From a virus: DNA of 64,000 nucleotides. The notes under the pieces are model-generated. The model searched no databases, was not told the origin of the DNA, and worked only from the letters and a program-made list of their open reading frames with translations. Every line of letters begins with the position of its first letter. Position 1 is the stretch's first letter. Position numbers and translations under genes: made by a program. Below are positions 14,651 through 62,505 of this stretch, piece after piece. The stretch covers positions 62,660 to 126,659 of IMG/VR virus record IMGVR_UViG_3300028048_000073. One strand, 5' to 3'.

Positions 14651-14658
14651 AAAAAATT

Positions 14659-16920: not shown

Positions 16921-16949
16921 TCAATAGAGGGGCATTAAAGCCCCTCTTG

Positions 16950-22589: not shown

Positions 22590-22640
22590 TCTTATTTTCT
22601 ATATTAATTATATCATATTTTTTAAAAAAAAGCAAGCTAC
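22590..22640 (-). promoter_or_regulatory. Variant early promoter upstream of the topoisomerase genes
   Basis: AT-rich region with the ctatattaattatatcat motif. Confidence 0.3.
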
Positions 22641-27180: not shown

Positions 27181-27295
27181 TTTACAAACCTCTCTTTCGC
27201 TCTCTCACGCCGCTTACGCCGTTTTTATCGCTTGAAAGTAAATTTATACCCCTAAAATTTAAAGCGATTTAAACGGCATTTGCGGCGATTTTAGA

Positions 27296-48388: not shown

Positions 48389-48465
48389 GTGGAACGTGAG
48401 GGATTCGAACCCATCTGTCTGTTGATTATGAGTCAACTGCTTTTTCCTCTTAAGCTACCGTTCCA
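48389..48465 (-). tRNA. tRNA-Met/Ile2 (anticodon CAT), atypical T-arm
   Basis: Acceptor stem and D-arm (GCTT/AAGC) are good. The anticodon stem GTTGA/TCAAC encloses the loop CTCATAA. The T-stem has only 3-4 base pairs. Confidence 0.5.
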
Positions 48466-48470
48466 AAATT

Positions 48471-48695
48471 TCATGGCTCAATGATGATAAATGGTTCAAT
48501 AGCCATATAAATATCCTCTTCACTATCTACCCATAGATTTTCAAACTCCATCGCGTGGAGTGCCCCAAGGACAGATTTAGCATTGACTGTAAGACCATTT
48601 CCATCGGTTATTGTAATTCTACCGTTAAGTCTTGCGGCGATAGCTGCAAATTCATTTGCCTGCTTCACTGTATCAATTCTTATTCGATTTCTCAT
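48471..48695 (-). CDS. HPr-like fold protein lacking the active-site His, hypothetical
   Basis: Weak HPr-like pattern: ANEFAAIAARLNGRITITDGNGLTVNAKSVLGAL. Confidence 0.25.
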   Translation of the reverse strand: MRNRIRIDTVKQANEFAAIAARLNGRITITDGNGLTVNAKSVLGALHAMEFENLWVDSEEDIYMAIEPFIIIEP

Positions 48696-48822
48696 ATTAT
48701 AATCTCCTTTAAATTATCTGTAGGGGACTAATTAGTCGATTGGTGGAAGATGTCGGAATCAAACCGCTCCCCGATGTCCCAAACATCGGATGCTATCATC
48801 ACACCCCATCCTCCATATAAAG

Positions 48823-48895
48823 TGACTCCTGCGGGACTCGAACCCAGCGTCTCTGATGTGAAAGACCAGCGTCTTTGCCTCTTGACTAAGGAGCC
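48823..48895 (-). tRNA. tRNA-Glu (anticodon TTC)
   Basis: Cloverleaf with the anticodon loop CTTTCAC and the T-loop TTCGAGT. Confidence 0.65.
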
Positions 48896-49175
48896 ATAAC
48901 ACCTGAGGTTTCCTAACCAATATCACTATTGTAACTCTAACCTCACAAGAGTTGTATATATTTTAATTGGAGGTAATAATGATTAGTTTTCTAGTCTGCG
49001 AAGAGCGCGTTCAGCTTTACGAATCAATCGTAGATTTTTCATTTCTCCCTTTGCCTTAAGGGCTGCAATGCGATTCTCATAATGTAGCTTATCTCTTATC
49101 ATTTAATTTTCTCTCCTTAATTTCTATAAATATTATATCATAATTTTTTATATTTTACAAATAAGGCTTTATAAA

Positions 49176-49249
49176 AGCTACTGGTCCGATTCGAACGGAC
49201 GTGAACGGTTTACAAGACCGACATACTAGACCCCTATATGACAGTAGCA
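49176..49249 (-). tRNA. tRNA-Thr (anticodon TGT)
   Basis: Acceptor stem GCTACTG/CAGTAGC, anticodon loop CTTGTAA, T-arm GTCCG-TTCGAAT-CGGAC. Confidence 0.6.
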
Positions 49250-49310
49250 TATCGGCTTTAAGGTCAGCTAACCGCACATACTTTTTTACTTGGCTATTTG
49301 CTTTCCAATG

Positions 49311-49385
49311 TGGCACCCGCGGAACGATTCGAACGCTCGATCTTTAGATTCGTAGTCTACTGCTTTTTCCGCTAAGCTACACGGG
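49311..49385 (-). tRNA. tRNA-Arg (anticodon ACG), CCA encoded
   Basis: Anticodon loop CTACGAA, T-arm GAGCG-TTCGAAT-CGTTC, ends in GCCA. Confidence 0.7.
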
Positions 49386-49390
49386 CATAT

Positions 49391-49466
49391 TGGTACGGCG
49401 AGAAGGAATTGAACCCTCGACACGCGCCTTAGAAGGGCACTGTTCTTTCCGCTGAACTACCGCCGC
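49391..49466 (-). tRNA. tRNA-Arg (anticodon TCT), CCA encoded
   Basis: Anticodon stem GTGCC/GGCGC with the loop CTTCTAA. T-loop TTCAATT. Confidence 0.7.
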
Positions 49467-49495
49467 ATATTTTCTTTTCTGGTATTCATTGTTAA

Positions 49496-49741
49496 TTATT
49501 CTAAGTTATTGATGATATTATCAAAATTATCTCTAACTTTAAGTAAGTCTTTTTTAGACATCTGTTTTAATAGCATATCTGACGGTAATCCTATGACTGG
49601 ATTCTCCAGTCCTTTTGTTCGTAAAGCGGCAGTTAAATTATTAAATGCAGAACACGCTTCCTCAACGCTACAGTCATTTAGACTATAATAAAGAACATAA
49701 ATGCTATTTTCCAAAAGAGGAATGTTCTCTATATCAACCAT
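49496..49741 (-). CDS. hypothetical protein
   Basis: 81-aa ORF. Confidence 0.3.
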   Translation of the reverse strand: MVDIENIPLLENSIYVLYYSLNDCSVEEACSAFNNLTAALRTKGLENPVIGLPSDMLLKQMSKKDLLKVRDNFDNIINNLE

Positions 49742-49775
49742 GTTTTAAAGCACCTCTTTTTGAGATTTCATATTC

Positions 49776-50516
49776 TTACCATGCAACATATGTATCAAGA
49801 GTTCCGTACGCACACCCAGAGTCATATACTTTACCTTGCTTACCAAAAGGGGTATCAACTATAGCGCCTTTAGATAATGAAGTCGCGGCAAGACAAATAT
49901 AGTCATTTTCGTCACAGACATATCCATTTTCATCCACATGACGTCCCGGTATACATAGACCGCCGCCCGGCAGTACATTCTGTGAGTACCAAGTCCAACG
50001 CCATCCGCCCCAGTAAATTACACCCGCACTCATAAAATTGGTAGGAGTATATTCTGGAACTGTTAATGGTGAAGTTTCTCTTGGTTTCTCCATATCAGTA
50101 TTTGTATCTTCATCTGTTGCAGGCTCTATATCTTCGGGTGTTAACTCGGGGGATAGAATTTCTGCTGATGAAGTTGTTGTTTCTTCTGTGGCAGGCACTT
50201 CATAATAAGTGATTACCACATTTTCAACATTGTTTTCTTTTGGCTGTTGAGTTGAAACAGTCGAAGACAATGCACTTGATGTAACACTCTGATTTGGCGT
50301 CTTTGAAGTGACATTACTTTCTGCTTTTGAAACAGTAGACGATGTAACTCTACTTGAAGTCATTTCATTCTTTACGCTCGAAGTGTTAATTGTTTTACTG
50401 ACTATTGCATCAGGAGTATCAACCGTTTCAACTTTTTCTGAAACTGCAGGCTTGCCACACCCACATAATACCACTAATAAAATTAATGCAATAGCTCTTG
50501 TAAATAATTGTTTCAT
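49776..50516 (-). CDS. Secreted lipoprotein with a Ser/Thr-rich linker and a C-terminal 3D-domain (MltA/YocH-like) peptidoglycan-hydrolase-type fold
   Basis: Signal peptide with the lipobox LCGCG. C-terminal GVIYWGGWRW...GYVCDENDYICLA...VDTPFG, with conserved Asp residues. Confidence 0.5.
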   Translation of the reverse strand: MKQLFTRAIALILLVVLCGCGKPAVSEKVETVDTPDAIVSKTINTSSVKNEMTSSRVTSSTVSKAESNVTSKTPNQSVTSSALSSTVSTQQPKENNVENVVITYYEVPATEETTTSSAEILSPELTPEDIEPATDEDTNTDMEKPRETSPLTVPEYTPTNFMSAGVIYWGGWRWTWYSQNVLPGGGLCIPGRHVDENGYVCDENDYICLAATSLSKGAIVDTPFGKQGKVYDSGCAYGTLDTYVAW

Positions 50517-50682
50517 TTTATTCTCTCCCTTTCTTTTGTGAATACCAGAAAAGGGGCGAAAATAATTGAGGGTCAGATTATTTTCAAGAGTCCATTAAAT
50601 GGAGTAATTTTCTCGCTTCTTATATACCGTTTCCGCACTCGGTCCAAATAGGACAGAAAATTACAAAGACTGTGAACGGATA

Positions 50683-50758
50683 TGGTGCGCGTGGAGGGAA
50701 TTGAACCCTCGACACCGAAATTAAAAGTTTCGTGCTCTGCCAACTGAGCTACACGCGC
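50683..50758 (-). tRNA. tRNA-Lys (anticodon TTT), CCA encoded
   Basis: Perfect cloverleaf: GCGCGTG-TA-GCTCAGTTGGCAGAGC-A-CGAAA-CTTTTAA-TTTCG-GTGTC-GAGGG-TTCAATT-CCCTC-CACGCGC-A-CCA. Confidence 0.9.
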
Positions 50759-51233
50759 ATATTATAGTTGTTATTTGGAAAATTTTAAGGAATATTCCAC
50801 CACAAATTTCATCAAACCTGTTCTATTGGTTGAACGGGACAACTAACTCCGTCACACTATTTACGCAAGTGTTCAACGCTCTGAAAGAGGAAAGAGCGGA
50901 TGAGGGGTGATGCTCCCCCGTATCGAGTTTGGAAGACTCGCATTCTACTGTTGAATTACATCCGCAAAAAGCATCCTTAGGTCGGCTAACCGCGCATTTG
51001 TTGATTGCTGGAATTTTTGCTTTTCCAATACGGGCTTTTGGGGAACCACCCCTTCGACGAGGTTTCTCCCCTCGTAATTATTATCTTGGCGGAAAGCGAA
51101 CCACCAGACTCGTTACGTGATATCGGACGCTAATTGTTGACCCGCAAATTAGTTTAGGACTATAACATCTCGGAGTGCATAGTATTCCGTAGTTTTTCGA
51201 CTGGTGAAGTCAAGGCACTAAAACTTCCTTAAG

Positions 51234-51306
51234 CTCTTGGGGCGGGGCACGATCCCGCGACCTTCAGTTTAACAGACTGTTGCTCTACCAGCTGAGCTAC
51301 CCAAGA
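51234..51306 (-). tRNA. tRNA-Asn (anticodon GTT), with a non-canonical T-loop
   Basis: GCTCAGCTGGTAGAGC D-arm, anticodon loop CTGTTAA, T-arm GCGGG-ATCGTGC-CCCGC, and a U1-A72 pair. Confidence 0.6.
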
Positions 51307-51313
51307 ATATAAG

Positions 51314-51387
51314 TGGTAGAGGGTAGAGGTTACGCTCCTCTGCCTCAAGGGTCAAAGCCTTGCGCGCTACTATTACGCCAACCCTCC
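51314..51387 (-). tRNA. tRNA-Gln (anticodon TTG), with a non-canonical T-loop
   Basis: Anticodon stem CAAGG/CCTTG with the loop CTTTGAC. T-arm AGAGG-AGCGTAA-CCTCT. G1-U72. CCA encoded. Confidence 0.6.
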
Positions 51388-51465
51388 ATATAAAAGCAGG
51401 ATTTTTTACAACTTACCTGCATAATGTTGGAAAAGGTGGTATCATATATTTGTACTCAATAATAG

Positions 51466-51537
51466 CGGTTCTAAGGAGAGTTGAACTCCTGTATCCAATG
51501 TGATAGGCGGATGTAATGACCGTTATACGATAGAACC
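51466..51537 (-). tRNA. tRNA-like gene with a degenerate anticodon arm; possibly a pseudo-tRNA
   Basis: Perfect acceptor stem (GGTTCTA/TAGAACC) and T-arm (AGGAG-TTCAACT-CTCCT), but the anticodon stem has only 2-3 base pairs. Confidence 0.3.
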
Positions 51538-51589
51538 AAATCTAATCGGTTTAGGTTTTTCCTCCGCGACGATACCGAAAAACTGGAGG

Positions 51590-51665
51590 TGGTTGCAGTG
51601 ACGAGATTCGAACTCGTGATTTACAGCTTATGAGGCTGTCGACGTAACCGCTGGTCTACACTGCG
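51590..51665 (-). tRNA. tRNA-Met (anticodon CAT), initiator-like with a C1xA72 mismatch
   Basis: Anticodon stem ACAGC/GCTGT with the loop CTCATAA. T-arm ACGAG-TTCGAAT-CTCGT. 5'-CGCAGTG and CACTGCA-3' leave positions 1 and 72 unpaired. CCA encoded. Confidence 0.65.
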
Positions 51666-51694
51666 ATATCTGCTTTTGTTTTTTAATTCTCTCA

Positions 51695-51737
51695 AACTTT
51701 CTATATATATTATATCAAATTTTTTGAGAATTTTCAA
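51695..51737 (-). promoter_or_regulatory. Conserved early promoter driving the tRNA-Met gene
   Basis: The reverse complement reads TTGAAA-N17-TATAAT-ATATATAGAAAGTTTGAG. Confidence 0.6.
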
Positions 51738-51982
51738 GTTGGTTTTCTTTATCTTGCTAAAGGCGCCTCGCTGCAAGCTGGTTGTCTGGGGGTTTCTCGC
51801 CCTCACCCCTCTGGTAGTTTTCCTTCTCCTAATAACGGCTCGTTTTCCAAAGCTGGAGGAAGTTTCTTTCTGGTTAATACTTCCAAATACCACTCTTCTT
51901 GTTTAATGTCGAAAAGAGCAAAAGTTGACAAGTTGGTTTATTTTAATGTCTGATGGGTAACAACCATATCCCGATTTGACAA

Positions 51983-52056
51983 TGGAGCAGAGAATGGGAG
52001 TCGAACCCATCTGAAATGTTTTGCAGACATTTACCTGACCGCTCGGACATCTCCGC
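51983..52056 (-). tRNA. tRNA-Cys (anticodon GCA), CCA encoded
   Basis: Anticodon stem AATGT/ACATT with the loop CTGCAAA. T-arm ATGGG-TTCGACT-CCCAT. Confidence 0.7.
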
Positions 52057-52070
52057 ATATTTATTTTTTT

Positions 52071-52116
52071 CTTAACTTTCTATATATATTATAACAAATT
52101 TTTTTAGATTTTTCAA
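52071..52116 (-). promoter_or_regulatory. Conserved early promoter driving tRNA-Cys
   Basis: TTGAAA-N17-TATAAT-ATATATAGAAAGTTAAG. Confidence 0.6.
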
Positions 52117-52332
52117 ATAAGGTTTTTTCGCGGAGTGCGGTGGGGAAAATCCCAAGCGCCCGCACTCCCCAATCGTTGTACAACTAATTTGGCTGTCTTA
52201 CAAGTAGCCAAGGGAATCAAACCCCACAGGACTGTTCTTCAACTTTTTTACGCCATAACGTTGCGCCAGAGTTTGCCAACAATAAAATCAACTCTCTGAT
52301 AAACGGCACCCTTGTCCCTATGAGTGCTGGGG

Positions 52333-52394
52333 GAACATTTATACAGCCGTTCCATACACTGAGGAACATTTATACAGCCGTTCCATACACTGAT
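52333..52394. repeat. Tandem direct repeat of 2 x 31 bp, each unit a hairpin, directly downstream of the tRNA-Ser 3' end
   Basis: GAACATTTATACAGCCGTTCCATACACTGA(G/T) appears twice in tandem. Each unit contains GGAAC...GTTCC. Confidence 0.6.
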
Positions 52395-52484
52395 TGGCAC
52401 TAAGGGTGGGATTTGAACCCACGGACCTATTACAGTCGGGAATTTTCAAGATTCCTACATTAAGCCAGACTCTGACACCTTAGC
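52395..52484 (-). tRNA. tRNA-Ser (anticodon TGA), class II with a long variable arm, CCA encoded
   Basis: Anticodon stem GGAAT/ATTCC with the loop CTTGAAA. A 17-nt variable arm. T-arm TGGG-TTCAAAT-CCCA. Confidence 0.8.
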
Positions 52485-52838
52485 ATATTATGTGGATTTT
52501 AGTGGCGGAGATTATCCACGGAACTCTATACTTTTAAGGCAAGTAGCCATAGCCTAAGTAGAGGATAGAGGTTATGCTTCTCTTTTACACGATCCTCAAC
52601 CGCGGTCGTGCGTTTTTACTGATTAAACTAATCCTCAATATAGTGCCAACCATTTCCTATTGGCATGGAGTAGGTTTTCATCTCCCATATGTCCGCAAAC
52701 ATATGCCGCTATTCTGGTACGGGTATGCTATATCGGAGTCAAGTACTTGCAGTTCTTCTTTCAAAGTTTTTTTATTCAGTAACAGACCTTTGTAACTTGC
52801 AATCATTACTCATGATCGACACCTAATCCGAAACCCGT

Positions 52839-52924
52839 TGGTGGGTGAAGAGGGTAACGCTCCCACTCGAACCATAGGTACGGGTTTTACAGACCCGCTC
52901 GTCTCTTTAACGATTTACTCACCC
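52839..52924 (-). tRNA. tRNA-Tyr (anticodon GTA), class II, CCA encoded
   Basis: Acceptor stem GGGTGAG/TTCACCC. Anticodon stem CGGGT/ACCCG with the loop CTGTAAA. A 14-nt variable arm. T-arm GTGGG-AGCGTTA-CCCTC with a non-canonical loop. Confidence 0.6.
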
Positions 52925-53149
52925 AGATATCTACTCCGTCGCCCCTCATGGGCTTATTCGGGACGGAAGTCACGCCGAGACCGCTTTACTCCCTCTAAGT
53001 GAAAGCTGTCATAAAAACTTGCGGACGCTTTAGTTTCACCGCATTACCCTTATCTTACTTTGCTATTGCTCAAAGATGACGTCCATTCTTCGTGCGCGGG
53101 GTCATTGGTTAGCCCAACTTTTTATTTTAACATCGCAGTCAACGATGGC

Positions 53150-53284
53150 TGGTAGCGGTAACGGGACTTGAACCCGTACGAGCAACTGCCCAACGGATTT
53201 TTGGAGCCAATACAAAGTGCTGCCCTTTGTTATTGCGACTGCGCATCGGCAAGTCCGTCGTGTCTGCCATTCCACCATACCGCC
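53150..53284 (-). tRNA. tRNA-Leu-like gene of 135 nt with a 49-nt insertion in the anticodon loop at position 34/35; the inferred mature anticodon is TAA
   Basis: The 5' half GGCGGTA-TG-GTGGAATGGCAGACAC-G-ACGGA-CTT and the 3' half AAAA-TCCGT-TGGGCAGTTGCTCGT-ACGGG-TTCAAGT-CCCGT-TACCGCT-A-CCA are canonical. The D-arm is shared with the Leu(TAG) and (CAA) tRNAs. The insertion GCCGATGCGCAGTCGCAATAACAAAGGGCAGCACTTTGTATTGGCTCCA lies between U34 and A35. Confidence 0.5.
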
Positions 53285-53380
53285 ATTTTTATCATCATCA
53301 GTCTTTATTGGCGCAAATGTCTCTAATTTAGAAGTCTTTGCTTGTATAAATGTCGATGATGATTGTTTAGAAAGTTTTTT

Positions 53381-53426
53381 CTTAACTTTCTATATATATT
53401 ATAACAAAAATTTTTAAATTTTTCAA
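53381..53426 (-). promoter_or_regulatory. Conserved early promoter driving the long Leu-like tRNA
   Basis: TTGAAA-N17-TATAAT-ATATATAGAAAGTTAAG. Confidence 0.6.
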
Positions 53427-53537
53427 TTTAAGCATTTTTGTTATCGGTCAGTTTTTTAAGAAACGCCCGCACTGAGGGCGGAAAGCAGTTGCCCAAGTTG
53501 CCCGAGGAATGATCCTCTACGTTTCTCAATAGGCAAG

Positions 53538-53620
<83 letters not shown>

Positions 53621-53806
53621 AAATCCATACGGTAGTTTTACAGGTAAAAACTACCAAATCCCCGTTACCTCGACTTTTCTACCCCGTTTTCAACCTTCAA
53701 ATATGAGGTCTCTCAGCTTGTTCTTCAGCTCAGGCAACTCCACGGCTCTGGTTCTATTTTCATACGACAGCTCAAGCCAGTATCTGACGGGTTTTTAAGT
53801 TTTTTC

Positions 53807-53852
53807 CTTAACTTTCTATATATATTATAACAAAAATTTTTAAATTTTTCAA
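53807..53852 (-). promoter_or_regulatory. Conserved early promoter driving tRNA-Leu(TAG)
   Basis: TTGAAA-N17-TATAAT-ATATATAGAAAGTTAAG. Confidence 0.6.
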
Positions 53853-53882
53853 TTTAAGCATTTTTGTTATAATGCTTAAAAG

Positions 53883-53957
53883 CACGGGACAACAGATTCG
53901 AACTGTTAAACACTTGCCTCTAATGGCAAGCGGCTTTACCAATTTGCCTAATCCCGT
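53883..53957 (-). tRNA. Atypical tRNA with an 8-nt anticodon loop CAUUAGAG; candidate suppressor or frameshift tRNA
   Basis: All other elements have standard lengths: ACGGGAT-TA-GGCAAATTGGTAAAGCC-G-CTTGC-[CATTAGAG]-GCAAG-TGTTT-AACAG-TTCGAAT-CTGTT-GTCCCGT-G. Alternatively the stem is 6 bp and the loop 6 nt. The loop contains both UUA and UAG triplets. A1-U72 and G73 resemble Gln-type identity elements. Confidence 0.55.
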
Positions 53958-54030
53958 ATGTTTCAAACGTGGGCAGATGCTTATTCTAATATATCACATT
54001 AACCACGCTTGTTATAACTGCCCCGTTGAA

Positions 54031-54107
54031 TGGTAGGTTGTTTGGGACTCGAACCCAAAAAATCCACTTTTTGAGAGTGGCGTGTCTGCCAATTGCACCA
54101 ACAACCC
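54031..54107 (-). tRNA. tRNA with anticodon CAA and a Leu-type D-arm but a class I short variable loop, CCA encoded
   Basis: GGGTTGT-TG-GTGCAATTGGCAGACAC-G-CCACT-CTCAAAA-AGTGG-ATTTT-TTGGG-TTCGAGT-CCCAA-ACAACCT-A-CCA. Confidence 0.65.
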
Positions 54108-54204
54108 ATATATGGTAAAGACTGTGCTGTTAAATTTTACACCATATTTGCCTGTCTAAAGCGGGGGTCAAGAACTTTTTAAAGAAAATTCTAAAAACTT
54201 TTTC

Positions 54205-54248
54205 AAATCTTGTATATATATTATATCAAAATTTTTGAAGTTTTTCAA
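54205..54248 (-). promoter_or_regulatory. Conserved early promoter driving tRNA(CAA)
   Basis: TTGAAA-N17-TATAAT-ATATATACAAG. Confidence 0.55.
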
Positions 54249-54339
54249 ATAAAAGAATTTATTATCAAGAACGGTGAGACTTTCCTTCAGCTTTCTCCGA
54301 TTTCATTGATTAAACGCTTAATAATAATTTTCTTTTATT

Positions 54340-54376
54340 GTATATTTATTATAACAAAAATTTTGAAAATTTTCAA
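54340..54376 (-). promoter_or_regulatory. Conserved early promoter
   Basis: TTGAAA-N17-TATAAT. Confidence 0.5.
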
Positions 54377-54574
54377 TTAAGGGGAACCTGTTCATAATCA
54401 TATACTTTATGCCCCGTGCCTTGAGTCTCAAGAAACTCGATCTCTTCTTGCAAAGCTGCATAAGTGGTATAGACTCCATAAATGTATGCTCTGCTATTAG
54501 TATAATCGTGTGTCAAAAGAACCCAAACATAACCTTCTATGTCTTTTCCCATTAATATACCCCATTTCTTTTTT

Positions 54575-54615
54575 TATTGTATAATAATTATACCAAAAAT
54601 TTTTATATTTTTCAA
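54575..54615 (-). promoter_or_regulatory. Conserved early promoter
   Basis: TTGAAA-N17-TATAAT. Confidence 0.5.
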
Positions 54616-54721
54616 ATTGGGTTTTCTTTGTTGAGTTCAGTCTGTCGAAGTCAGGCGCGCCAACGGGAAGGTCATACTCAACTGGCGCCCATATATGAAA
54701 GCTGAAATTTATTTTCAACTT

Positions 54722-54762
54722 TCATTGTATATATATTATATCAAATTTTTTAATATTTTTCA
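54722..54762 (-). promoter_or_regulatory. Conserved early promoter
   Basis: TTGAAA-N17-TATAAT-ATATATACAATG. Confidence 0.5.
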
Positions 54763-54947
54763 AATAAATGATTTAATCTGTCAATGTTATTTATAAAGAG
54801 AGGCTCAACACAAAAACTCCAATCTGGACGTTCAGCTTGAATAGTTTCAATAACTTCAGCAAGTTGAGCTTCCTCATAAACGCCAACAGTATGTGATATG
54901 CCAGAAAATTCATACGGTCTCATTTGAACAAGAAAAACTCTATTCAT
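54750..54947 (-). CDS. small hypothetical protein
   Basis: 65-aa ORF downstream of a promoter copy. Confidence 0.3.
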   Translation of the reverse strand: MNRVFLVQMRPYEFSGISHTVGVYEEAQLAEVIETIQAERPDWSFCVEPLFINNIDRLNHLFEKY

Positions 54948-54961
54948 AAAACGCTCCTTTT

Positions 54962-55004
54962 TTTATTGTATATATATTATATCAAAATTTTTGATAATTT
55001 TCAA
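54962..55004 (-). promoter_or_regulatory. Conserved early promoter
   Basis: TTGAAA-N17-TATAAT-ATATATACAAT. Confidence 0.5.
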
Positions 55005-55063
55005 ATTTTTTGTATTTTAATATAAAGTTTTTCAAAGCTACATTAAACATTTTTGCCCACGGT

Positions 55064-55357
55064 TTAATCACCAACATAAAATTTTTTTTCTCTTGCTATT
55101 CTATTAATTGTGTTTTTAAAGCGTCGCATATCTGACTGCTTCCGCCATTTAAATAAAAGCACACCTTTTTTTGAAAGATATAGAACTTCTGCATGAAAAG
55201 TTTCAACCAATAGCTTGACATATTCAGCAGGCGAAATTTCAAGCAGTCTAGGCACAATCCACCACATAGCGTATTTTAAACCATGAGATACATTATTGCA
55301 ATGCCAAGTTCCCAATGCAGCATCTTGCCATTCTGTCATTTTATATATTTCTTTCAT
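55064..55357 (-). CDS. hypothetical protein
   Basis: 97-aa ORF. Confidence 0.3.
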   Translation of the reverse strand: MKEIYKMTEWQDAALGTWHCNNVSHGLKYAMWWIVPRLLEISPAEYVKLLVETFHAEVLYLSKKGVLLFKWRKQSDMRRFKNTINRIAREKKFYVGD

Positions 55358-55366
55358 AATATAACC

Positions 55367-55666
55367 TCACTTTCTGCGGCAAGACTTTTTCCAATAGGCG
55401 TAATAATCTTCTTCTGTCGGATATTCTTTATGAAAATAATGATATCCTATTTGATGTGTTAATCGCCAATAGTATTTTTTAGCTTCTCGCCATGAGTAGT
55501 AATAAGGAGAATATCCCCAATAGTCAATAACATACTTTTTATATGCCGAACCATTTGCGGGGGTCTCCTTGTTTTTCATATGTCTAAAACGACGATTTCT
55601 TTCACGACGAGAGTGATGCCTACTACCCCATCTTTCAACAGGATGCTTTCTATAAGACCTACTCAT
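55367..55666 (-). CDS. small basic protein rich in Arg, Tyr and Trp, hypothetical
   Basis: 99-aa ORF. Confidence 0.3.
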   Translation of the reverse strand: MSRSYRKHPVERWGSRHHSRRERNRRFRHMKNKETPANGSAYKKYVIDYWGYSPYYYSWREAKKYYWRLTHQIGYHYFHKEYPTEEDYYAYWKKSCRRK

Positions 55667-55685
55667 AAGAAGACCCCCTTTAACG

Positions 55686-55970
55686 TTATTCTATCCGCGC
55701 CCCCAAAGCTCTTATCATCGCTTCAATATCAGCTTTTTCTGCATCAGTAGGAGCTGTGAAATCAATATTTATTTCTTTTGCGGCGGGAGCCTCTTTAGCG
55801 CTGCCACCAAGCAAATTTTTTGCAGCCGTCATTTGAATCTTAATTTCAACTGTTTCACCATTCTCTTGCCACGGAATACGCAAGATTTTTGCATCTTCCA
55901 TAAATGAGTTGGGAAAAGTTTCCTTTAACTTTTCCAAAATTTCCTGCTTGGCTTGACTACCTTTTACCAT
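55686..55970 (-). CDS. hypothetical protein
   Basis: The start is taken at the internal Met MVKGSQ to avoid a 77-nt overlap. Confidence 0.3.
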   Translation of the reverse strand: MVKGSQAKQEILEKLKETFPNSFMEDAKILRIPWQENGETVEIKIQMTAAKNLLGGSAKEAPAAKEINIDFTAPTDAEKADIEAMIRALGARIE

Positions 55971-56214
55971 TCTTCTGTACCCCTTCCATCCCTTCAATCC
56001 ATGACATTTCGCAAATATCTTGTACAGCATCATCCATATCCGTTACAATGAGTTCCATTGAAACCATTGAGATATCATCTTCGCCATAATAGTGACAAAG
56101 ATGCTCTAATGCCTCATTATAGGTACAGCCAAAAGTGATACCTTTAGCCTCTGCTATACTTCCATTCTTCTTCGTTTCATCATAGAATTGGACATAATAC
56201 CTATAAAAATACAT
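55957..56214 (-). CDS. hypothetical acidic protein
   Basis: 85-aa ORF. Confidence 0.3.
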   Translation of the reverse strand: MYFYRYYVQFYDETKKNGSIAEAKGITFGCTYNEALEHLCHYYGEDDISMVSMELIVTDMDDAVQDICEMSWIEGMEGVQKNGKR

Positions 56215-56228
56215 TCGGAAATCTCCTT

Positions 56229-56274
56229 TCCTTAACTTTCTATATTTATTATATCAAATTTTTTTAGAATTATC
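56229..56274 (-). promoter_or_regulatory. Conserved early promoter with a TTGATA -35 variant
   Basis: TTGATA-N17-TATAAT-AAATATAGAAAGTTAAGGAAAGGAG. Confidence 0.5.
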
Positions 56275-57069
56275 AATTATGAGTCCCGCCTTTTTCAAAG
56301 TTCCGCCCAATTCAAGACATCTGTCACATATGCGGCAGGCGCCTGTGCGTAGACAACGCAAGCGGCAATCGATACGAGCCTCCGCAAATTGCTTAATGAT
56401 ATATCGACTATCTATTGGCTGTTTAAGTCCAATGATAATTTCCTGCAACTCGCCAAACCACTTCTTGTCTTTGGCATATATCTTATAATAAACTGATTGT
56501 TCTGTTAGCTTCTCTTTGAAATAAAATTCACAAATGTCAAGAGAATCATCATATGTAACGATATCTTCGGGACGTATGAAAAAAGAATGTAAGTCATAAA
56601 TAGGAAGTTCCTGCTGTGCTATATTTGGAAAGGTTCTGGTCTTTATGTTGCGGCTATGGCAAAATTTACCAACCTCTACCATATCAAAACCAAGAGCTTC
56701 AGTGACATAAATATCTGAAACGCCAAATTCCGCTTGTGTACGGAGTTTCAGCCATGTGTTTGCCATGTCAATGAAAAAATAATCAATTCCCGCATCCTTA
56801 AACGGTTTAATGTCGTCAAGATTTTCACATTCTCTTGGAAGCAAAATAGCGAAATTGATTAGATTCATCTCTTGCTTTAGCGCAAGGAATACTTTTAAAA
56901 GTCCTTTTTCTGTTAAATGATTTTTATCCATAAGTTTTATAATAATTCTTTGGTTAGGGCGTTTAGAAATAAATGAACCATAGTTATGATTTTCTGTTGT
57001 TTCTATCATAAGTTCATCGACTTCATCCATATAATCCCCGCCAAAGATATAGTCTAGACAATATTTCAT
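56254..57069 (-). CDS. hypothetical protein with a C-terminal Cys cluster
   Basis: C-terminal CRLRCLRTGACRICDRC. The start is taken at MKYCLDY after a ribosome-binding site. Confidence 0.3.
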   Translation of the reverse strand: MKYCLDYIFGGDYMDEVDELMIETTENHNYGSFISKRPNQRIIIKLMDKNHLTEKGLLKVFLALKQEMNLINFAILLPRECENLDDIKPFKDAGIDYFFIDMANTWLKLRTQAEFGVSDIYVTEALGFDMVEVGKFCHSRNIKTRTFPNIAQQELPIYDLHSFFIRPEDIVTYDDSLDICEFYFKEKLTEQSVYYKIYAKDKKWFGELQEIIIGLKQPIDSRYIIKQFAEARIDCRLRCLRTGACRICDRCLELGGTLKKAGLIIDNSKKI

Positions 57070-57134
57070 ACCTTTAACTCCTTTATATAGAAATATGAGG
57101 CGACATTGCTGCCGCCTCTTGTAGGGGGTTATTA

Positions 57135-57521
57135 TCACTCTGCCAGCTTGTAGTGCATTGTACGCTTGCCATCGACGTTGATAGCTGTCTTCTCAACCTC
57201 TCCAGCCTTGAAGAGCTGCCCAAGACGAGCGCTTACCTTTGCACGAGTAATCTCGGGGTCATCGAGACCCATAGCATCCATAATCTGAGGGATTGTCTGA
57301 AACTCGTTTGTCAAAGCACCGTAAACCATGTCACGAAGCTCGTCACCCTCTGCCTTACGAACAGCTGCCTGTGCCTTAGCCTTTGCTGCCTTAGTCTCAA
57401 TCTGCTCAATCTGCTTTGCACAGAACTCCTTAAGCTCTGCTGCGTGCTCCGCGTCCTCAGGAATGTATGTAGCCAGAAGTGCAAACATATCCTTTTTTAC
57501 CATCTTATCAGCCATAATCAC
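57135..57521 (-). CDS. GC-rich Ala/Lys-rich small protein, hypothetical
   Basis: 128-aa ORF. Its composition differs from the neighbouring genes. Confidence 0.3.
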   Translation of the reverse strand: MIMADKMVKKDMFALLATYIPEDAEHAAELKEFCAKQIEQIETKAAKAKAQAAVRKAEGDELRDMVYGALTNEFQTIPQIMDAMGLDDPEITRAKVSARLGQLFKAGEVEKTAINVDGKRTMHYKLAE

Positions 57522-57574
57522 TATCTCCTTTTTCTCTTTTAAATTTTTTGTTTTGTTTGTTTTCTTATCTTTAC

Positions 57575-57612
57575 TGTATTTATATTATACCAAAAATTTT
57601 TATAGAACTCAA
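57575..57612 (-). promoter_or_regulatory. Conserved early promoter with a weak -35
   Basis: TTGAGT-N17-TATAAT. Confidence 0.4.
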
Positions 57613-57618
57613 ATTTTT

Positions 57619-57840
57619 TTAGGGGTTAAGAAGTGAATCAAGTTCTGTGCGGGTCAATGAGTTGTATGTAAGGTTATTGTAATGAAGAACGTCATCTATG
57701 CAGACATTTGGATTTGCGCCATGAGAAATAAGCGAAGCCATATCCTCCCGTGCCTTATTTACCTTGTAGTCATGCTCTTCCGCGGAGTCAAGCATACCGC
57801 AATCCTCCAGCTTAAACATCTCGAATGGTGAATAGAACAT
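57619..57840 (-). CDS. small hypothetical protein
   Basis: 73-aa ORF. Confidence 0.3.
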   Translation of the reverse strand: MFYSPFEMFKLEDCGMLDSAEEHDYKVNKAREDMASLISHGANPNVCIDDVLHYNNLTYNSLTRTELDSLLNP

Positions 57841-57854
57841 ACGTAGCCCTCCTA

Positions 57855-58115
57855 TTAATAATCGCTAAGGTCGAATCCTGCGCAATCATACTTACCGTAA
57901 TCGACTGCTGTTCCTCTTATTGCTTCTGCCGCGCAGTAATTAGCATACATTTCCTCTATCTCCTCGTCAGTGGGGAGGTAAACAAAAGGTGCGTCTGCCG
58001 CCTCATAGTCCTGCATCATTTTTTCGATGTACTCATCGTACTCCTTATCAGATGTAATGCCTGCCTCTGCGCAGAAGATTTCCTCCAGAGTCATATCTTC
58101 GTAATTCTTATTCAT
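57855..58115 (-). CDS. small acidic protein
   Basis: 86-aa ORF. Confidence 0.3.
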   Translation of the reverse strand: MNKNYEDMTLEEIFCAEAGITSDKEYDEYIEKMMQDYEAADAPFVYLPTDEEIEEMYANYCAAEAIRGTAVDYGKYDCAGFDLSDY

Positions 58116-58134
58116 ATTTGATACCCCTTTCCTT

Positions 58135-58176
58135 ATCTTCTATATATATTATATCAAAAATTTTTGAAATTTTCAA
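58135..58176 (-). promoter_or_regulatory. Conserved early promoter
   Basis: TTGAAA-N17-TATAAT-ATATATAGAAG. Confidence 0.55.
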
Positions 58177-58956
58177 TTAGGAATTAAATGAAGCATAGTC
58201 AGTTATTACAGGGCGATGGTTGATGTATCCAACATTCGAGCTATGAAGATCCTCAATGCCAGTATCTTCAAGATACTTCCAAAGAGCTGCGACTTCCTTT
58301 ATACCATAATAAAGGTAAAAATCAACTATCCATTTTCTCGGACTCCTCCACCTTATCTGACAGTCTTTGATGCCAAGGTATTCTTTTAATTCAGCCTTTA
58401 TCTCATTATAAAGATGAAAAGCTTCTTGTTCTTTTTCATCTTCTTTGTACTCAGCTTCACCTTCATAGATACGAGCTCTCTCTTGCACATAGACAGGATG
58501 TCCATGACTGTAACCTATCAAAACTGTTTCTGCAAAAAAAGCATCTACACCATTTAGACAGGCATCATCAAAGAGGATTGTTTCTACTTCGCAGTAATCC
58601 CAATTTCTAACAAGTTTATCTTCAAGTCTGGGCGGTAATGACTGCCAAGCAGAATCAAAAGACTCTGAACAACTATTGTATGTGATGCAGGTATTGCCAT
58701 CCTCGTCTGTATAATATGAACGATAATATCCTTCACCGCTCTCAGTAAAAGGAATCTTTACCACAATATTCGGATAATCGTCAAGGAAAAGGACACCTTT
58801 AGAAACACCAGAATCAAAACGGTAAACACCATTTCCCCAGCATCTATCAAAAATATATTCAAAGTTATCCTCATTGATATCCGCATCATCAGATAAGTCT
58901 GCTCTATCAACAATAGAAAGAATATCTTTGATTTCCTTTTGTGTTAATTCTACCAT
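58177..58956 (-). CDS. hypothetical acidic protein
   Basis: 259-aa ORF. Confidence 0.3.
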   Translation of the reverse strand: MVELTQKEIKDILSIVDRADLSDDADINEDNFEYIFDRCWGNGVYRFDSGVSKGVLFLDDYPNIVVKIPFTESGEGYYRSYYTDEDGNTCITYNSCSESFDSAWQSLPPRLEDKLVRNWDYCEVETILFDDACLNGVDAFFAETVLIGYSHGHPVYVQERARIYEGEAEYKEDEKEQEAFHLYNEIKAELKEYLGIKDCQIRWRSPRKWIVDFYLYYGIKEVAALWKYLEDTGIEDLHSSNVGYINHRPVITDYASFNS

Positions 58957-58974
58957 TTGCCCCTCTCCTTTTCT

Positions 58975-59018
58975 TAACTTTCTATATATATTATATCAAA
59001 AATTTTTAAAAAAATAAA
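58975..59018 (-). promoter_or_regulatory. Conserved early promoter with a weak -35
   Basis: TATAAT-ATATATAGAAAGTTAAGAAAAGGAG. Confidence 0.45.
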
Positions 59019-59039
59019 GAGCGGCTCACTAGCCGCCCC

Positions 59040-59252
59040 TTAGTCATCTCTTTTTCTTGCATCTTCCAACTTTTTACGTTTTAAATTTTTGCGGATAGGC
59101 TCTCTGCCACGTACAGGCTCATACTTTTGGCAGTGTACGCAGGAATGCCATAGCGTTCCCTCCTTGCCATTGGCGCAGTCCTTTTCCGCCCTATACCATT
59201 TGCATAACGCGTCACGGTCCTTCATTAGGCTTGTTCCTCCCCCGCTGTTCAA
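59040..59252 (-). CDS. small basic Cys-containing protein
   Basis: 70-aa ORF. Confidence 0.3.
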   Translation of the reverse strand: MNSGGGTSLMKDRDALCKWYRAEKDCANGKEGTLWHSCVHCQKYEPVRGREPIRKNLKRKKLEDARKRDD

Positions 59253-59365
59253 TTATATCATATACTGACAGAGCAATCATAACAATGGCAAGAATTACTC
59301 CAATAGCAAAACCATTGTAAGCAAAAATAACTCCATAAGCAATCTGCAAGATTATTGATATAATA

Positions 59366-59605
59366 TTAAATTTCATAAGGCGATCGATCCTCCTCTAAAC
59401 TTCTCCATGGTGCTTTTGCATCGTATTCACGGCAAATACAGCCACATTCAGGACATACTACAGTGTTATATTCATGATAAAATTCAATTGAAAATCCAAC
59501 ATCTTCTTGTTCAAAAGAAAATTTACAACCACAGTCTACACAAGTTGTCCATTTAGGAAAACGAAAATCTTTCCAAGTGTCGCCATGTTCAATTACTTTT
59601 TTCAT
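59366..59605 (-). CDS. zinc-ribbon protein
   Basis: CVDCGC...CPECGC. Confidence 0.35.
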   Translation of the reverse strand: MKKVIEHGDTWKDFRFPKWTTCVDCGCKFSFEQEDVGFSIEFYHEYNTVVCPECGCICREYDAKAPWRSLEEDRSPYEI

Positions 59606-59631
59606 AGTAACTTCCTTTCTATTTCTTTAAA

Positions 59632-59853
59632 TTAATATAGTATGATTTTTCTTTTGCACTCTGGACAATAAATATAGTCTTGTGCTATCTCTGGCGGGGG
59701 ACTGCATAAATTTTTATAAAATGTTGTTTTTATATCTTCTTTGTCATATAGAAAAACACATTTACATTCATTACACATTTTCTGCTTAGGAAATTCATCA
59801 CTCCACTTGGTTCCATGACGAATTACTTGCATCCGTCCTTCACCTCCCGCCAC
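59632..59853 (-). CDS. zinc-ribbon protein
   Basis: CNECKC...CPECKRK. Confidence 0.35.
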   Translation of the reverse strand: MAGGEGRMQVIRHGTKWSDEFPKQKMCNECKCVFLYDKEDIKTTFYKNLCSPPPEIAQDYIYCPECKRKIILY

Positions 59854-60014
59854 GGGTAGAAGCCTGGCTCATCCTCAAACAGCTCCTCGCCGCATTTTGG
59901 ACACTCCACAACATCGGTAAAAGCAGAAGGTCTTGGTAACTTTCTTTTGTCTATACCAACAAAAGTAAAAGCGTGACCGCAATATTTGCAAATCGTTTCG
60001 TATCTCATAATCAA
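59823..60014 (-). CDS. zinc-ribbon protein
   Basis: CKYCGH...CPKCGEE. Confidence 0.35.
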   Translation of the reverse strand: MIMRYETICKYCGHAFTFVGIDKRKLPRPSAFTDVVECPKCGEELFEDEPGFYPWREVKDGCK

Positions 60015-60177
60015 TCCTCCATGTCTTTAATAGTGTCATAAATTACAACACCCCAAGTCATTCCGCCGAAAATGTTAAATAACATATTGGTTGTTTCTGT
60101 ATTATAATTACAATTTAAAAAAAATGTAATTACAAAAGCAATAAGTGTTACAGTTCTGAAAATTGTCAATTTGTAGT

Positions 60178-60363
60178 TCATATCTCATCATCCTTCACCA
60201 TACTAAGTAAAGTCAAACAGGAGCCAAAGCAGCTACCTAAAAGGATAAGACCAATATAGATAAGCGGCTCTGCTTCAATTCCTTTTCCAATAGCAACAAT
60301 AAAAAACCCGAATATCGCTCGAAGAAGAATCATTAGTATTTCAAAAAGAATCTCTATATCCAT
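60178..60363 (-). CDS. small membrane protein
   Basis: Two predicted transmembrane helices. Confidence 0.3.
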   Translation of the reverse strand: MDIEILFEILMILLRAIFGFFIVAIGKGIEAEPLIYIGLILLGSCFGSCLTLLSMVKDDEI

Positions 60364-60373
60364 GTTTGCCCCC

Positions 60374-60997
60374 TTATTCGATAGGCTGAAGTATACATCT
60401 TGTAAGTACAGTCTGTTTTTGCTGCCCGTACTCTTTATGATCTTTTACCGTGCCAGAAAGCAAGATCTCGTCACCGACACCCTCTTCCTTAAAAGATGAT
60501 GTAAACCAGCAAAGAACTGAGTTGCCAGACTCAAAAGTAAACAATGTTGAAATGCCGTACTTGGAATTGATTTCCTTTTTCCCGACAATAACTGCGGGAA
60601 TCTTGCGGAGCCTGTCACCGATTGCGCCGATAAATTCGGAATTGGTCATCGTACTTGCCAATTCGATCTCTCTTTTGGGCTGATACGGTTTAAGGGTTTC
60701 TTTAACGAAAGCTTCTGCGCCATCTTTTTCGGTCATTGTTGAAATAGAAGCCAACCAGTCGTAAATATCCTCTTCGAAGATCGGCACCCACACAAACCCC
60801 TCCATCTCAAATGTCTGCGGAGAGTGCCAACCAAGCAGCTTGTTGAAAACACAGTCATTCTGCTTTAAAGTATCCTTCACTTCATAGGTGTTGCCACCCG
60901 TAATGACATAGGTAACATACTTGCCGTCAACCTGCTTAAAGCCATTTCTTTTAAGCCATTCAGCTCTTGTTTCATTCTTTTTTCTATACATAGACAC
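60374..60997 (-). CDS. hypothetical protein
   Basis: 207-aa ORF directly downstream of a promoter. Confidence 0.35.
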   Translation of the reverse strand: MSMYRKKNETRAEWLKRNGFKQVDGKYVTYVITGGNTYEVKDTLKQNDCVFNKLLGWHSPQTFEMEGFVWVPIFEEDIYDWLASISTMTEKDGAEAFVKETLKPYQPKREIELASTMTNSEFIGAIGDRLRKIPAVIVGKKEINSKYGISTLFTFESGNSVLCWFTSSFKEEGVGDEILLSGTVKDHKEYGQQKQTVLTRCILQPIE

Positions 60998-61021
60998 TCA
61001 CCTTTCTTTTTTTCTTTTTTA

Positions 61022-61060
61022 TTGTATTTATATTATATCAAAATTTTTAGAATTTTTCAA
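61022..61060 (-). promoter_or_regulatory. Conserved early promoter
   Basis: TTGAAA-N17-TATAAT. Confidence 0.55.
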
Positions 61061-61168: not shown

Positions 61169-61197
61169 TTGAAAAACAAAAAAATTTTTGATATAAT
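61169..61197 (+). promoter_or_regulatory. Divergent plus-strand consensus promoter
   Basis: TTGAAA-N17-TATAAT on the plus strand, upstream of 61238. Confidence 0.55.
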
Positions 61198-61237
61198 AAA
61201 GGTACAATAAAATTAAAAATGAAAAGGAGAGTTTGGT

Positions 61238-62445: not shown

Positions 62446-62474
62446 TTGATAAAATTTAAAATTTTTGATATAAT
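62446..62474 (+). promoter_or_regulatory. Plus-strand consensus promoter
   Basis: TTGATA-N17-TATAAT-ATATATAGAAAATAAAGAAAGGG. Confidence 0.55.
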
Positions 62475-62505
62475 ATATATAGAAAATAAAGAAAGGGTGG
62501 ATACC

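Follow-up and report, generated by a model that had tools for sequence, protein, structure and literature searches.

Repeated consensus early promoters are a classical feature of phages. The closest described system is the promoter-early stem-loop (PeSL) of T4-type phages, of which about 50 repeated early promoters of sigma-70 consensus are found per genome (Arbiol et al. 2010, PMC2839356; Comeau et al. 2014, PMC4122927). According to the same two studies, a PeSL comprises an AT-rich region upstream, a stem-loop terminator whose position varies, and a 3′ Shine–Dalgarno (SD) site with a start codon, and PeSLs concentrate before ORFans in hyperplastic regions, at the insertion/deletion (indel) and replacement junctions of close relatives. 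In the literature that we searched, the term PeSL was found only in T4-like and related literature. Here, we describe a comparable repeat, a promoter-plus-leader element hereafter called the cassette, which occurs in 26 copies in a 64-kb stretch of viral DNA (the window; IMG/VR record IMGVR_UViG_3300028048_000073, positions 62660–126659) and to which an earlier note on this sequence had drawn attention.

Other phages offer partial parallels. The passages of PMC6873191 that draw on Stewart et al. (1998) describe Bacillus phage SPO1's host-takeover module as small genes, expressed early and at a high level from promoters of their own, in short operons. The locus studied here resembles this module, to which early regions of Herelleviridae are similar, in its small-gene cluster, its short operons, and its predicted strong sigma-A promoters with ribosome-binding sites, but a PHROGs search found no homology to SPO1 genes, and the array of cassettes continues into a tRNA cluster and includes units free of open reading frames (ORFs). 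The part of PMC7509114 that refers to Hue et al. (1995) reports that early mRNA of SP82 is stabilized in B. subtilis in a ribosome-binding-site-dependent (polypurine) manner, and that 5′ hairpins act likewise. A purine-rich SD-like sequence or a hairpin is also predicted near the 5′ end of the cassette transcripts. For coliphage T5, Gentz and Bujard reportedly found in 1985 that very strong promoters for the host polymerase share AT-rich sequence beyond the hexamers, for instance in the spacer and in the region that is transcribed first. Multiple strong promoters with conserved AT-rich sequence are common to T5 and our window, whereas the host and the details of the consensus differ, and a role in recombination is proposed only here. 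The tRNA region of T4, as Broida and Abelson are said to have described it in 1985, has small ORFs and small stable RNAs interleaved with tRNAs, and early promoters. These promoters are few, whereas in the window almost all tRNAs, singly or in pairs, have a consensus promoter of their own, and the two regions show no sequence relationship.

Like PeSLs, the cassettes are repeated promoters of sigma-70 consensus, 17 of 26 ending in an SD site and start codon. They also lie before small ORFans in a variable region (17 of the 26 copies between 49 and 62.5 kb; no PHROGs hit for 9 of 10 array and neighboring proteins tested) and coincide with indel and replacement junctions of relatives. As for the stem-loop, a hairpin is found at the −35 element in 5 of the 6 copies of one class (class B) and nearby in the copy at 30719, but not in about 19 copies of the other (class A). 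In contrast to PeSLs, whose hosts are Gram-negative, the cassettes belong to an uncultivated lineage of 120–190-kb gut or rumen phages with a probable Firmicutes host, their spacer is an A/T tract and not a polyG/polyC stem, and they also head individual tRNA genes. Encapsidated mini-circles belong to the T4-type systems. We read the cassettes as strong host sigma-A/sigma-70 promoters that would also serve as sites of homologous exchange, with the class B copies insulating operons, and assign this reading a probability of roughly 75%. The present understanding of early promoters is not overturned by it; what is added is evidence suggesting that cassettes also serve as recombination joints and that some of them are terminator–promoter composites.

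Architecture of the repeated cassette

The motif TTGAAA-N17-TATAAT, with ≤1 mismatch, occurs 27 times in the window, compared with 2.68 ± 1.58 times (maximum 6) in dinucleotide-preserving shuffles. A position-weight matrix covering −35 to +9 detects 25 sites above 18 bits in the window and none in five shuffles. With a variant copy at 25889, added by inspection, the total is 26 (Table 1), so that the repeat exists far beyond chance, as the earlier note had held. Each position that it listed, given there as the end of the leader and here as the first base of the −35 element, maps onto a cassette, and the copies at 14865, 30719, and 49160 extend its list. All cassettes are co-oriented with what follows them: 24 minus-strand copies precede minus-strand genes or tRNAs, and 2 plus-strand copies precede plus-strand genes. 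A divergent pair, 61060(−)/61169(+), is borne out as well, and three to five further plus-strand copies lie beyond the window end on an assembly fragment (L071). The claim that the cassette stands before most minus-strand genes was too broad; cassettes head operons of 1–8 genes and precede roughly a quarter to 40% of genes.

The 40-nt core shows 77–80% pairwise identity among the copies, whereas the 40 nt on either side show 29–31%, which is background. A 17-nt spacer and TG at −15/−14 are found in 26 of 26 copies, and the −10 element is TATAAT in 25 and TAAAAT in one. The −35 element reads TTGAAA in 14 copies, TTGATA, TTGATT, TTGAAT, TTGCAA, TTGTAA, TTGCTT, or TTGAGT in 11, and TTTATT in one. 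The extended −10 element follows the pattern T(R/T)TGnTATAAT, with TATG (i.e. TRTG) in most class B copies and in the consensus of relatives, and TTTG in most class A copies. The spacer, typically AAAAATTTTTG, has a G+C content of 10% and consists almost only of A and T. Downstream of the −10 element follow an AT-only discriminator, ATATAT(A), a predicted start at A or G, and a very short purine-rich leader. This sequence logic is strong support for the identity as promoters: the consensus hexamers, the fixed 17-nt spacer, the extended −10 element, the co-orientation, and the fixed distance of 17 copies to an SD-preceded start codon all point to it. The motif is not itself a repeated terminator, which the earlier note had named as one finding that would speak against promoters: the conserved core lacks a GC stem, and terminator-like sites are not enriched at 48–64 kb (15 versus 11.1 ± 3.7 expected).

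The conserved leader described in the earlier note is present but not uniform, and it falls into two subtypes, AGAAAGTTAAG and ACAATAAAA. About 16 copies are TATAAT-ATATATA-GAAAGTTAAG-like and 8 copies are TATAAT-ATATATA-CAATAAAA-like, among them all five copies of the array. One part of this “leader” is predicted to be untranscribed discriminator and another to be the SD site. Seventeen copies are followed by an SD-preceded start codon (SD ∼10 nt before the start) with a predicted 5′-untranslated region (5′-UTR) of 22–34 nt, 5 lie 25–197 nt upstream of a tRNA gene, and 3 or 4 stand before ORF-free sequence or an unclear ORF. The GGAG/GAGG SD element is present only before protein genes, and an A-run takes its place before tRNAs and ORF-free units, where about half of the leaders tend to open with a hairpin at the very 5′ end. 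A 5′-terminal hairpin is clear in the leaders of cassettes 14652, 53426, 54248, and 54763 and weak in that of 33272; short-leader copies have none except a weak one at 56276. At 14660–14865 (−), the ATG of a 59-amino acid (aa) ORF lies 5 nt after the −10 element of cassette 14865 and has no SD site. A leaderless mRNA, or a promoter-plus-noncoding unit upstream of cassette 14652, is possible there.

Class A comprises 20 copies with a TTGAAA-like −35 element and dominates the tRNA and small-ORF region at 49–62.5 kb. Class B comprises 6 copies (7422, 11195, 16924, 22635, 25889, and 59018) with a TTGATTTTT-like −35 region. In 5 of the 6 class B copies, a hairpin abuts the −35 element (−16 to −19 kcal/mol at 7422, 16924, 22635, and 59018; −9.2 kcal/mol at 25889). 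This hairpin ends exactly at TTG, and the following T-run doubles as terminator tail and −35/spacer. The hairpin-bearing class B copies are thus predicted to be terminator–promoter composites, a feature overlooked in the earlier note. That every cassette is such a composite was rejected for class A, in which about 19 copies have no stem-loop.

Table 1. Cassettes and associated features of the window (aa, amino acids; targets of cassettes are predictions)
Feature	Coordinates	Strand	Predicted target or remark
Cassette, class B, TTGATT-17-TGtTATAAT, GC hairpin abuts −35	7377–7422	−	169-aa ORF
Cassette, class B, exact leader ATATATAGAAAGTTAAG	11150–11195	−	113-aa ORF
Cassette, weaker class A (TTGCAA), 67-nt leader with 5′ hairpin	14607–14652	−	89-aa ORF
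Cassette, class A, at stop of NAD-ligase gene	14820–14865	−	59-aa ORF downstream
Cassette, class B, upstream GC hairpin −18.3 kcal/mol	16879–16924	−	NAD-dependent DNA ligase gene
Cassette, class B, upstream hairpin −19.4 kcal/mol, T-run over −35	22590–22635	−	Gyrase B homologue
Cassette, class B, hairpin and T-run	25844–25889	−	121-aa zinc-finger protein and operon with amidase gene
Cassette, class A variant, hairpin with T-run 17 nt upstream	30674–30719	−	107-aa ORF
Cassette, class A, top score (56 bits)	33227–33272	−	Conserved 801-aa gene
tRNA cluster, into which the array reads	48389–54107	−	14 tRNAs (ARAGORN) and 3 more (Rfam), at least 17
Cassette inside tRNA cluster	49115–49160	−	39-aa ORF, then tRNA-Glu
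Cassette 37 nt upstream of tRNA-Met	51692–51737	−	
Cassette 25 nt upstream of tRNA-Cys	52071–52116	−	
Cassette before interrupted tRNA-Leu(UAA), 5′-terminal leader hairpin	53381–53426	−	
Cassette before tRNA-Leu(UAG)	53807–53852	−	
Array cassette 5	54203–54248	−	Reads into tRNA-Leu(CAA)
ORF-free 93-nt unit	54249–54341	−	Only a 13-codon ORF without SD site; weakly structured, z = −2.1
Array cassette 4, −35 overlaps stop codon of 59-aa gene	54331–54376	−	93-nt ORF-free unit
59-aa protein	54373–54552	−	Identical protein on 4 contigs
Array cassette 3	54570–54615	−	59-aa gene
ORF-free 113-nt unit	54616–54728	−	13-bp hairpin 4 nt from predicted 5′ end and GC-rich second hairpin
Array cassette 2, −35 overlaps stop codon of 65-aa gene	54718–54763	−	113-nt unit
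65-aa ORFan protein	54750–54947	−	AAGGAG SD site; identical protein on 13 contigs
Array cassette 1	54959–55004	−	65-aa gene
Cassette (TTGATA)	56231–56276	−	85-aa ORF; orthologous copy in L094/L101
Cassette variant (TTGAGT), 56-nt leader	57567–57612	−	128-aa ORF
Cassette	58131–58176	−	86-aa ORF
Class B composite, 12-bp terminator-like hairpin 59042–59015, its T-run forming the −35 region	58973–59042	−	259-aa ORF
Cassette, minus member of divergent pair	61015–61060	−	205-aa ORF
Cassette, plus member of divergent pair	61169–61214	+	160-aa ORF
Cassette (TTGATA)	62446–62491	+	135-aa ORF

The tandem array and the units between its promoters

At 54.2–55.0 kb, the cassettes form a tandem array, for which the earlier note had given six copies with almost no coding capacity. 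Five copies lie within these bounds, spaced 128, 239, 148, and 241 nt apart. On the minus strand, their order is P55004, the 65-aa gene, P54763, 113 nt, P54615, the 59-aa gene, P54376, 93 nt, and P54248, which is followed by a 106-nt leader and tRNA-Leu(CAA). The genes for these 65-aa and 59-aa proteins, each with an SD site, take up 378 of 800 nt (47%), and 2 of the 5 intervals are ORF-free.

Both ORFs are real genes under purifying selection, because identical copies exist on independent contigs and the ratios of nonsynonymous to synonymous substitution (dN/dS) are 0.36 for the 65-aa protein, which has a 69%-identical homologue in contig L101, and 0.26 for the 59-aa protein, which has a divergent 63-aa allele in L093. 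Neither protein has a PHROG or Pfam annotation on record, which makes them ORFans, and among 5.8 billion proteins searched, the only matches were those of the 65-aa protein's own cluster. The two proteins were rejected as paralogues (BLASTP E = 0.066 over 17 residues).

Small RNAs or micro-proteins had been proposed as the products of the array. Two small proteins are indeed encoded, and for the ORF-free units, which have neither a terminator nor an Rfam match, a small RNA function is only a possibility. The search of these units for structured small RNAs, called for at the same time, gave one clear fold. The 113-nt unit reaches −30.5 kcal/mol (z = −3.45), with 0 of 200 shuffles as good, and neither unit belongs to an Rfam family at the gathering threshold or at E ≤ 1. 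By the criteria for small regulatory RNAs, the ORF-free units have their own promoter, and no terminator, known family, or covariation homologues were found for them. Terminators inside the array were not found either.

It is conceivable, if rather doubtful, that the array is a battery of phage small RNAs in which the 113-nt and 93-nt units function like the small RNAs of T4. Each of the two ORF-free units is preceded by a consensus promoter of its own, the fold of the 113-nt unit is far more stable than those of its shuffles, and the 93-nt unit is conserved to ∼94–100% in L101–L103. Processing enzymes could release both units, which lie directly upstream of the tRNA cluster. However, no defined 3′ end accompanies the missing terminator and Rfam family, and the 113-nt unit, without an exact match in IMG/VR or the JGI metagenomes, was found only in this phage. 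Both units are dispensable, because the 113-nt unit is cleanly deleted in the close relative L101 and both are absent from L093–L098. They could equally be remnants of lost genes or alternative long 5′-UTRs. Unless shown otherwise, we would regard the ORF-free units as alternative long 5′ leaders or as pieces released by tRNA processing.

Mosaic junctions and distribution in related phages

The identical 65-aa or 59-aa protein is also encoded on contigs from related but distinct phages, and comparison with these contigs places several junctions at cassettes. The segment 55010–54720 (P55004, the 65-aa gene, and P54763 up to ATATATACAAT) is 98–99% identical in L093–L099. Upstream, the homology stops 2–6 nt before the −35 element of P55004 (55006–55010), beyond which a GIY-YIG endonuclease gene is found in L093–L098, a DUF3307 gene in L099, and a 97-aa gene in the window. 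Downstream, it ends at 54720, inside the P54763 leader. The next 471 nt of the window (113-nt unit, promoter, 59-aa gene, promoter, and 93-nt unit) are replaced in L093–L098 by one highly divergent 63-aa allele, and homology resumes, at 91–94%, at 54248, the first base of the −35 element. What is missing from L101 is precisely the 113-nt unit together with one promoter (148 nt), and cassette 3 is absent as a separate copy. The single promoter that remains is a hybrid, in which the spacer of P54763 (TTGAAAAATATTAAAA) is joined to the leader of P54615, as would be expected from a crossover between two direct cassette copies. At 58.2–56.3 kb, L094 and L101 are only 66–67% identical to the window, and the orthologous cassettes are visibly more conserved than their flanks. 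In the tRNA region, L093 holds an additional divergent unit of spacer, promoter, and tRNA-Cys at cassette 52116.

Eight rearrangement events were counted at 51.4–56.3 kb, 4 of them with endpoints in cassettes, which make up ∼12% of this interval (binomial p about 0.01). These comparisons give the cassettes the look of recombination joints as well, a point overlooked in the earlier note, and the junctions at 55006–55010, 54720, and 54248 and the L101 hybrid recall those described for PeSLs.

The cassette is more widespread than the DNA around it. The exact 26-mer TGNTATAATATATATAGAAAGTTAAG is found at 70 loci from about 50 IMG/VR contigs, mostly of 40–197 kb, which otherwise share with the window only patches of 67–80% identity in few genes, or nothing. 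In GTDB, it is found on phage-sized contigs (130–180 kb) binned with metagenome-assembled genomes (MAGs) of rumen or gut Clostridia and similar bacteria. These matches were rejected as host promoters, since they consist of phage-sized contigs in MAGs and one probable mobile-element promoter. The exact 26-mer is also present in a cultured Oscillospiraceae-type isolate, Massiliimalia massiliensis (NZ_FUHT01000003.1; L084, 2190–2360), followed by two hairpins and a gene for a P-loop protein. This locus is probably part of a prophage or mobile element and may offer a clue to the cassette's host range. Cultured Firmicutes phages, namely those of Enterococcus, Lactococcus (949-group), Lactobacillus, Leuconostoc, Streptococcus, Staphylococcus, and Listeria, hold sequences of 76–83% similarity in several copies per genome, and the basic design is thus ordinary for phages of low-G+C Gram-positive hosts.

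Many near-identical copies, some next to hairpins, that coincide with rearrangement junctions and have a 26-mer in common between otherwise dissimilar contigs might also be expected of a mobile or structural DNA element (like a miniature inverted-repeat transposable element, an iteron, or a terminator repeat) whose likeness to a promoter is incidental. We consider this highly improbable. Terminal inverted repeats or target duplications were not found, and the copies always share the strand of the downstream gene and keep a fixed distance from its start codon. Moreover, the invariant positions are the sigma-A determinants (−35, 17-nt spacer, TG, and −10), the conserved core has no GC stem, with no enrichment of terminator-like sites, and similar promoter architecture at 76–83% identity recurs in many cultured Firmicutes phages.

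An independent scan of the 26-mer loci for TTG-N17-TGnTATAAT yielded 214 unique promoters with the consensus TTGACTTTTt..aaAAatTaTGnTATAAT-ATATATAGAAA, in which the −35 element of the relatives is TTGACT. The eleven positions after the −10 element (ATATATAGAAA) are 59–92% conserved in these promoters. For orthologues of the 801-aa gene, ∼19 of 43 carry such a promoter upstream, several more carry one without TG, and the rest have none. A leader that is universal in the lineage was rejected, because the orthologous promoters before the 801-aa gene use others, e.g. ATATATGTAATAAAG. The promoter architecture thus appears to be a property of the lineage, whose positions come and go, and the exact leader a common variant that is not obligatory. 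A resembling element, TAWWWTAGWA, is found 26–33 nt upstream of the start of plus-strand, probably structural, genes at 38810, 40179, and 44821, and also at 36680 and 42010. These genes have no −35 element and no TG, and the element is similar to the ATATATAGAAA part of the cassette. It may mark a separate class of promoters, perhaps a late one, or a common start-site context. As a separate late promoter motif resembling the leader, it is found at only 3–5 plus-strand sites.

The conservation downstream of the −10 element could mean that the cassette is chiefly the target of a phage factor that binds ATATATAGAAAGTTAAG, such as an RNA-binding repressor, an endoribonuclease, a phage sigma factor, or a late activator, and thus works as an early and a late promoter at once or as a post-transcriptional shut-off unit. 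In the 214 promoters, the conservation of positions +1 to +11 downstream of the −10 element nearly equals that of the hexamers, copies before tRNAs retain GAAAGTTAAG with no need for an SD site, and three plus-strand genes without −35 and TG have the resembling TAWWWTAGWA element. We nevertheless regard such a factor as unlikely. Eight window copies use ACAATAAAA and orthologous promoters of relatives use yet other leaders, so that no single RNA sequence seems obligatory; the first 6–7 conserved bases are probably untranscribed; the plus-strand motif rests on 3–5 sites; and no candidate regulator was identified, PHROGs giving the neighboring ORFs no function. Equally improbable is the wider proposal that ATATATAGAAAGTTAAG, which about 50 otherwise dissimilar gut and rumen phage contigs of 100–190 kb have in common as an exact string, is the site of a lineage-wide factor (a RegB-like endoribonuclease, a shut-off repressor, or a late activator) that switches the regulon, with the cassettes as portable joints. 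If it were true, uncultivated Firmicutes phages would trade ORFans, tRNAs, and promoter-driven small RNAs via cassettes.

The window is AT-rich phage DNA (G+C 32–43%) and encodes an NAD-dependent DNA ligase, gyrase A and B homologues, a pyruvate-formate-lyase-like glycyl-radical enzyme, an RNA-ligase homologue, and an amidase. Cassettes are absent from a plus-strand block encoding BspA-type leucine-rich repeat, DUF6273, and peptidase-G2 proteins, which are probably tail-fiber genes. No close DNA relative was found among 50,697 deposited phage records (megablast; the sole match was a tRNA), and ENA and Logan assemblies hold fragments 99.9–100% identical to the window (L071, L072, L092, and L103). 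Orthologues of the conserved 801-aa protein occur on 45 IMG/VR contigs (48–71% amino acid identity), many of 120–194 kb, and 35–36% identical relatives occur in “uncultured phage” records of 462–735 kb. The phage is an uncultivated, large phage of gut or rumen, and its host is probably a member of the Firmicutes, because ribosome-binding sites are strong and of AGGAG type and the promoters are of the corresponding type.

Several observations concern the tRNA cluster. Just downstream of tRNA-Ser, at 52363–52394 (−), a 32-nt segment (TCAGTGTATGGAACGGCTGTATAAATGTTCC) is tandemly duplicated where L093 has its extra tRNA-Cys unit. The tRNA-Leu(UAA) at 53153–53284 (−) is interrupted in its anticodon loop, after CUU, by a 49-nt insertion, with 53 nt aligned by Rfam compared with 4 in the tRNA model. 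L093 has an uninterrupted 86-nt tRNA-Leu(UAA) at 3502–3587, and the anticodon stems differ by two compensatory pairs, which suggests that the interrupted tRNA may still be under selection. Cyanobacterial tRNA-Leu group I introns sit at about the same site; as such an intron, the 49-nt insert was rejected as far too short. Between tRNA genes, ∼650 nt at 52490–53150 (−) are ORF-poor, richer in G+C, and ∼90% conserved in L093, without an Rfam match. ARAGORN calls a tRNA-Tyr at 3811–3896 of L093, where the window diverges and no tRNA is called. A tRNA at 53882–53957 (−) has an abnormal anticodon loop of 6 or 8 nt, also in L093, and a suppressor-type tRNA with anticodon CUA, reported as 'Pyl', is located at 49391–49466 (−). 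Recoding of TAG by a suppressor tRNA(CUA) was rejected, as the window shows no sign of it: under the standard code, the long ORFs are uninterrupted, and TAG is the stop codon of 2 of 42.

Two further features lie elsewhere in the window. At 25985–27296, 1.3 kb without an ORF of ≥150 aa falls in the most G+C-rich part (43% versus ∼33% around it). A 128-nt direct repeat of 96% identity is found at 44819–44945 and 46614–46741 (+). The repeat at 44853 covers a promoter-like element, SD site, and gene start, and the 46.6-kb copy lies inside the ORF 46562–47353.

Proposed function and significance of the cassettes

If the cassettes are host-type promoters, RNA polymerase of the host would fire them without phage factors, so that they would be active at the start of infection and would drive the genes for replication, many small ORFans, and the tRNA cluster. 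The five array promoters, with no terminators between them, would give additive transcription into the tRNA genes, and processing by RNase P/Z would release pieces upstream of the tRNAs. An SD site within ∼15–25 nt of the 5′ end, or alternatively a 5′ hairpin, could act as a stabilizer against 5′-to-3′ decay in a Firmicutes host. The hairpins of class B would insulate operons within the replication gene block. In addition, the 45–60 nt of near-identity would be a substrate for homologous exchange, by which promoter-plus-gene units could be replaced, deleted, or duplicated. Such exchange would lead to the junctions described above and to local homogeneity of subtypes, as seen in the five adjacent ACAAT-type copies of the array and in the copies at 53426 and 53852, which are 94% identical over 80 nt.

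Several points weigh against this reading. We infer the start sites, strength, and timing of the promoters, and the host only from SD sites, the promoter type, and the binning of MAGs. The 4 rearrangement events outside cassettes, all in the tRNA part, end at the ends of tRNA genes. The intergenic space is almost all cassette, and selection for junctions at gene borders would look alike; the hybrid promoter of L101 is the only observation that is specific to exchange within the repeat. Most copies of class A lack a stem-loop and are thus not strict composite PeSLs. The pattern of 5′ hairpins is based on 10 leaders, only 4–5 of which show one. Finally, an amidase/endolysin homologue in a cassette-headed operon argues against exclusively early expression. 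A single early regulon, as the earlier note had proposed, is plausible on the grounds that cassettes precede the genes for DNA ligase and gyrase A/B, unknown small ORFs, and tRNAs and do not occur in the plus-strand block of probable tail-fiber genes.

The cassettes provide a transcription map for a large clade of uncultivated 120–190-kb gut or rumen phages, indicating which genes are probably read by the host polymerase and where operons may begin and end. As a compact and probably very strong promoter with 5′-UTR, the cassette is also a potential expression part for gut Clostridia. Cassette-mediated shuffling, so far a matter of T4-type phages of Gram-negative hosts, is suggested also for phages of probable Firmicutes hosts, in which it would help explain the turnover of ORFans and tRNAs.

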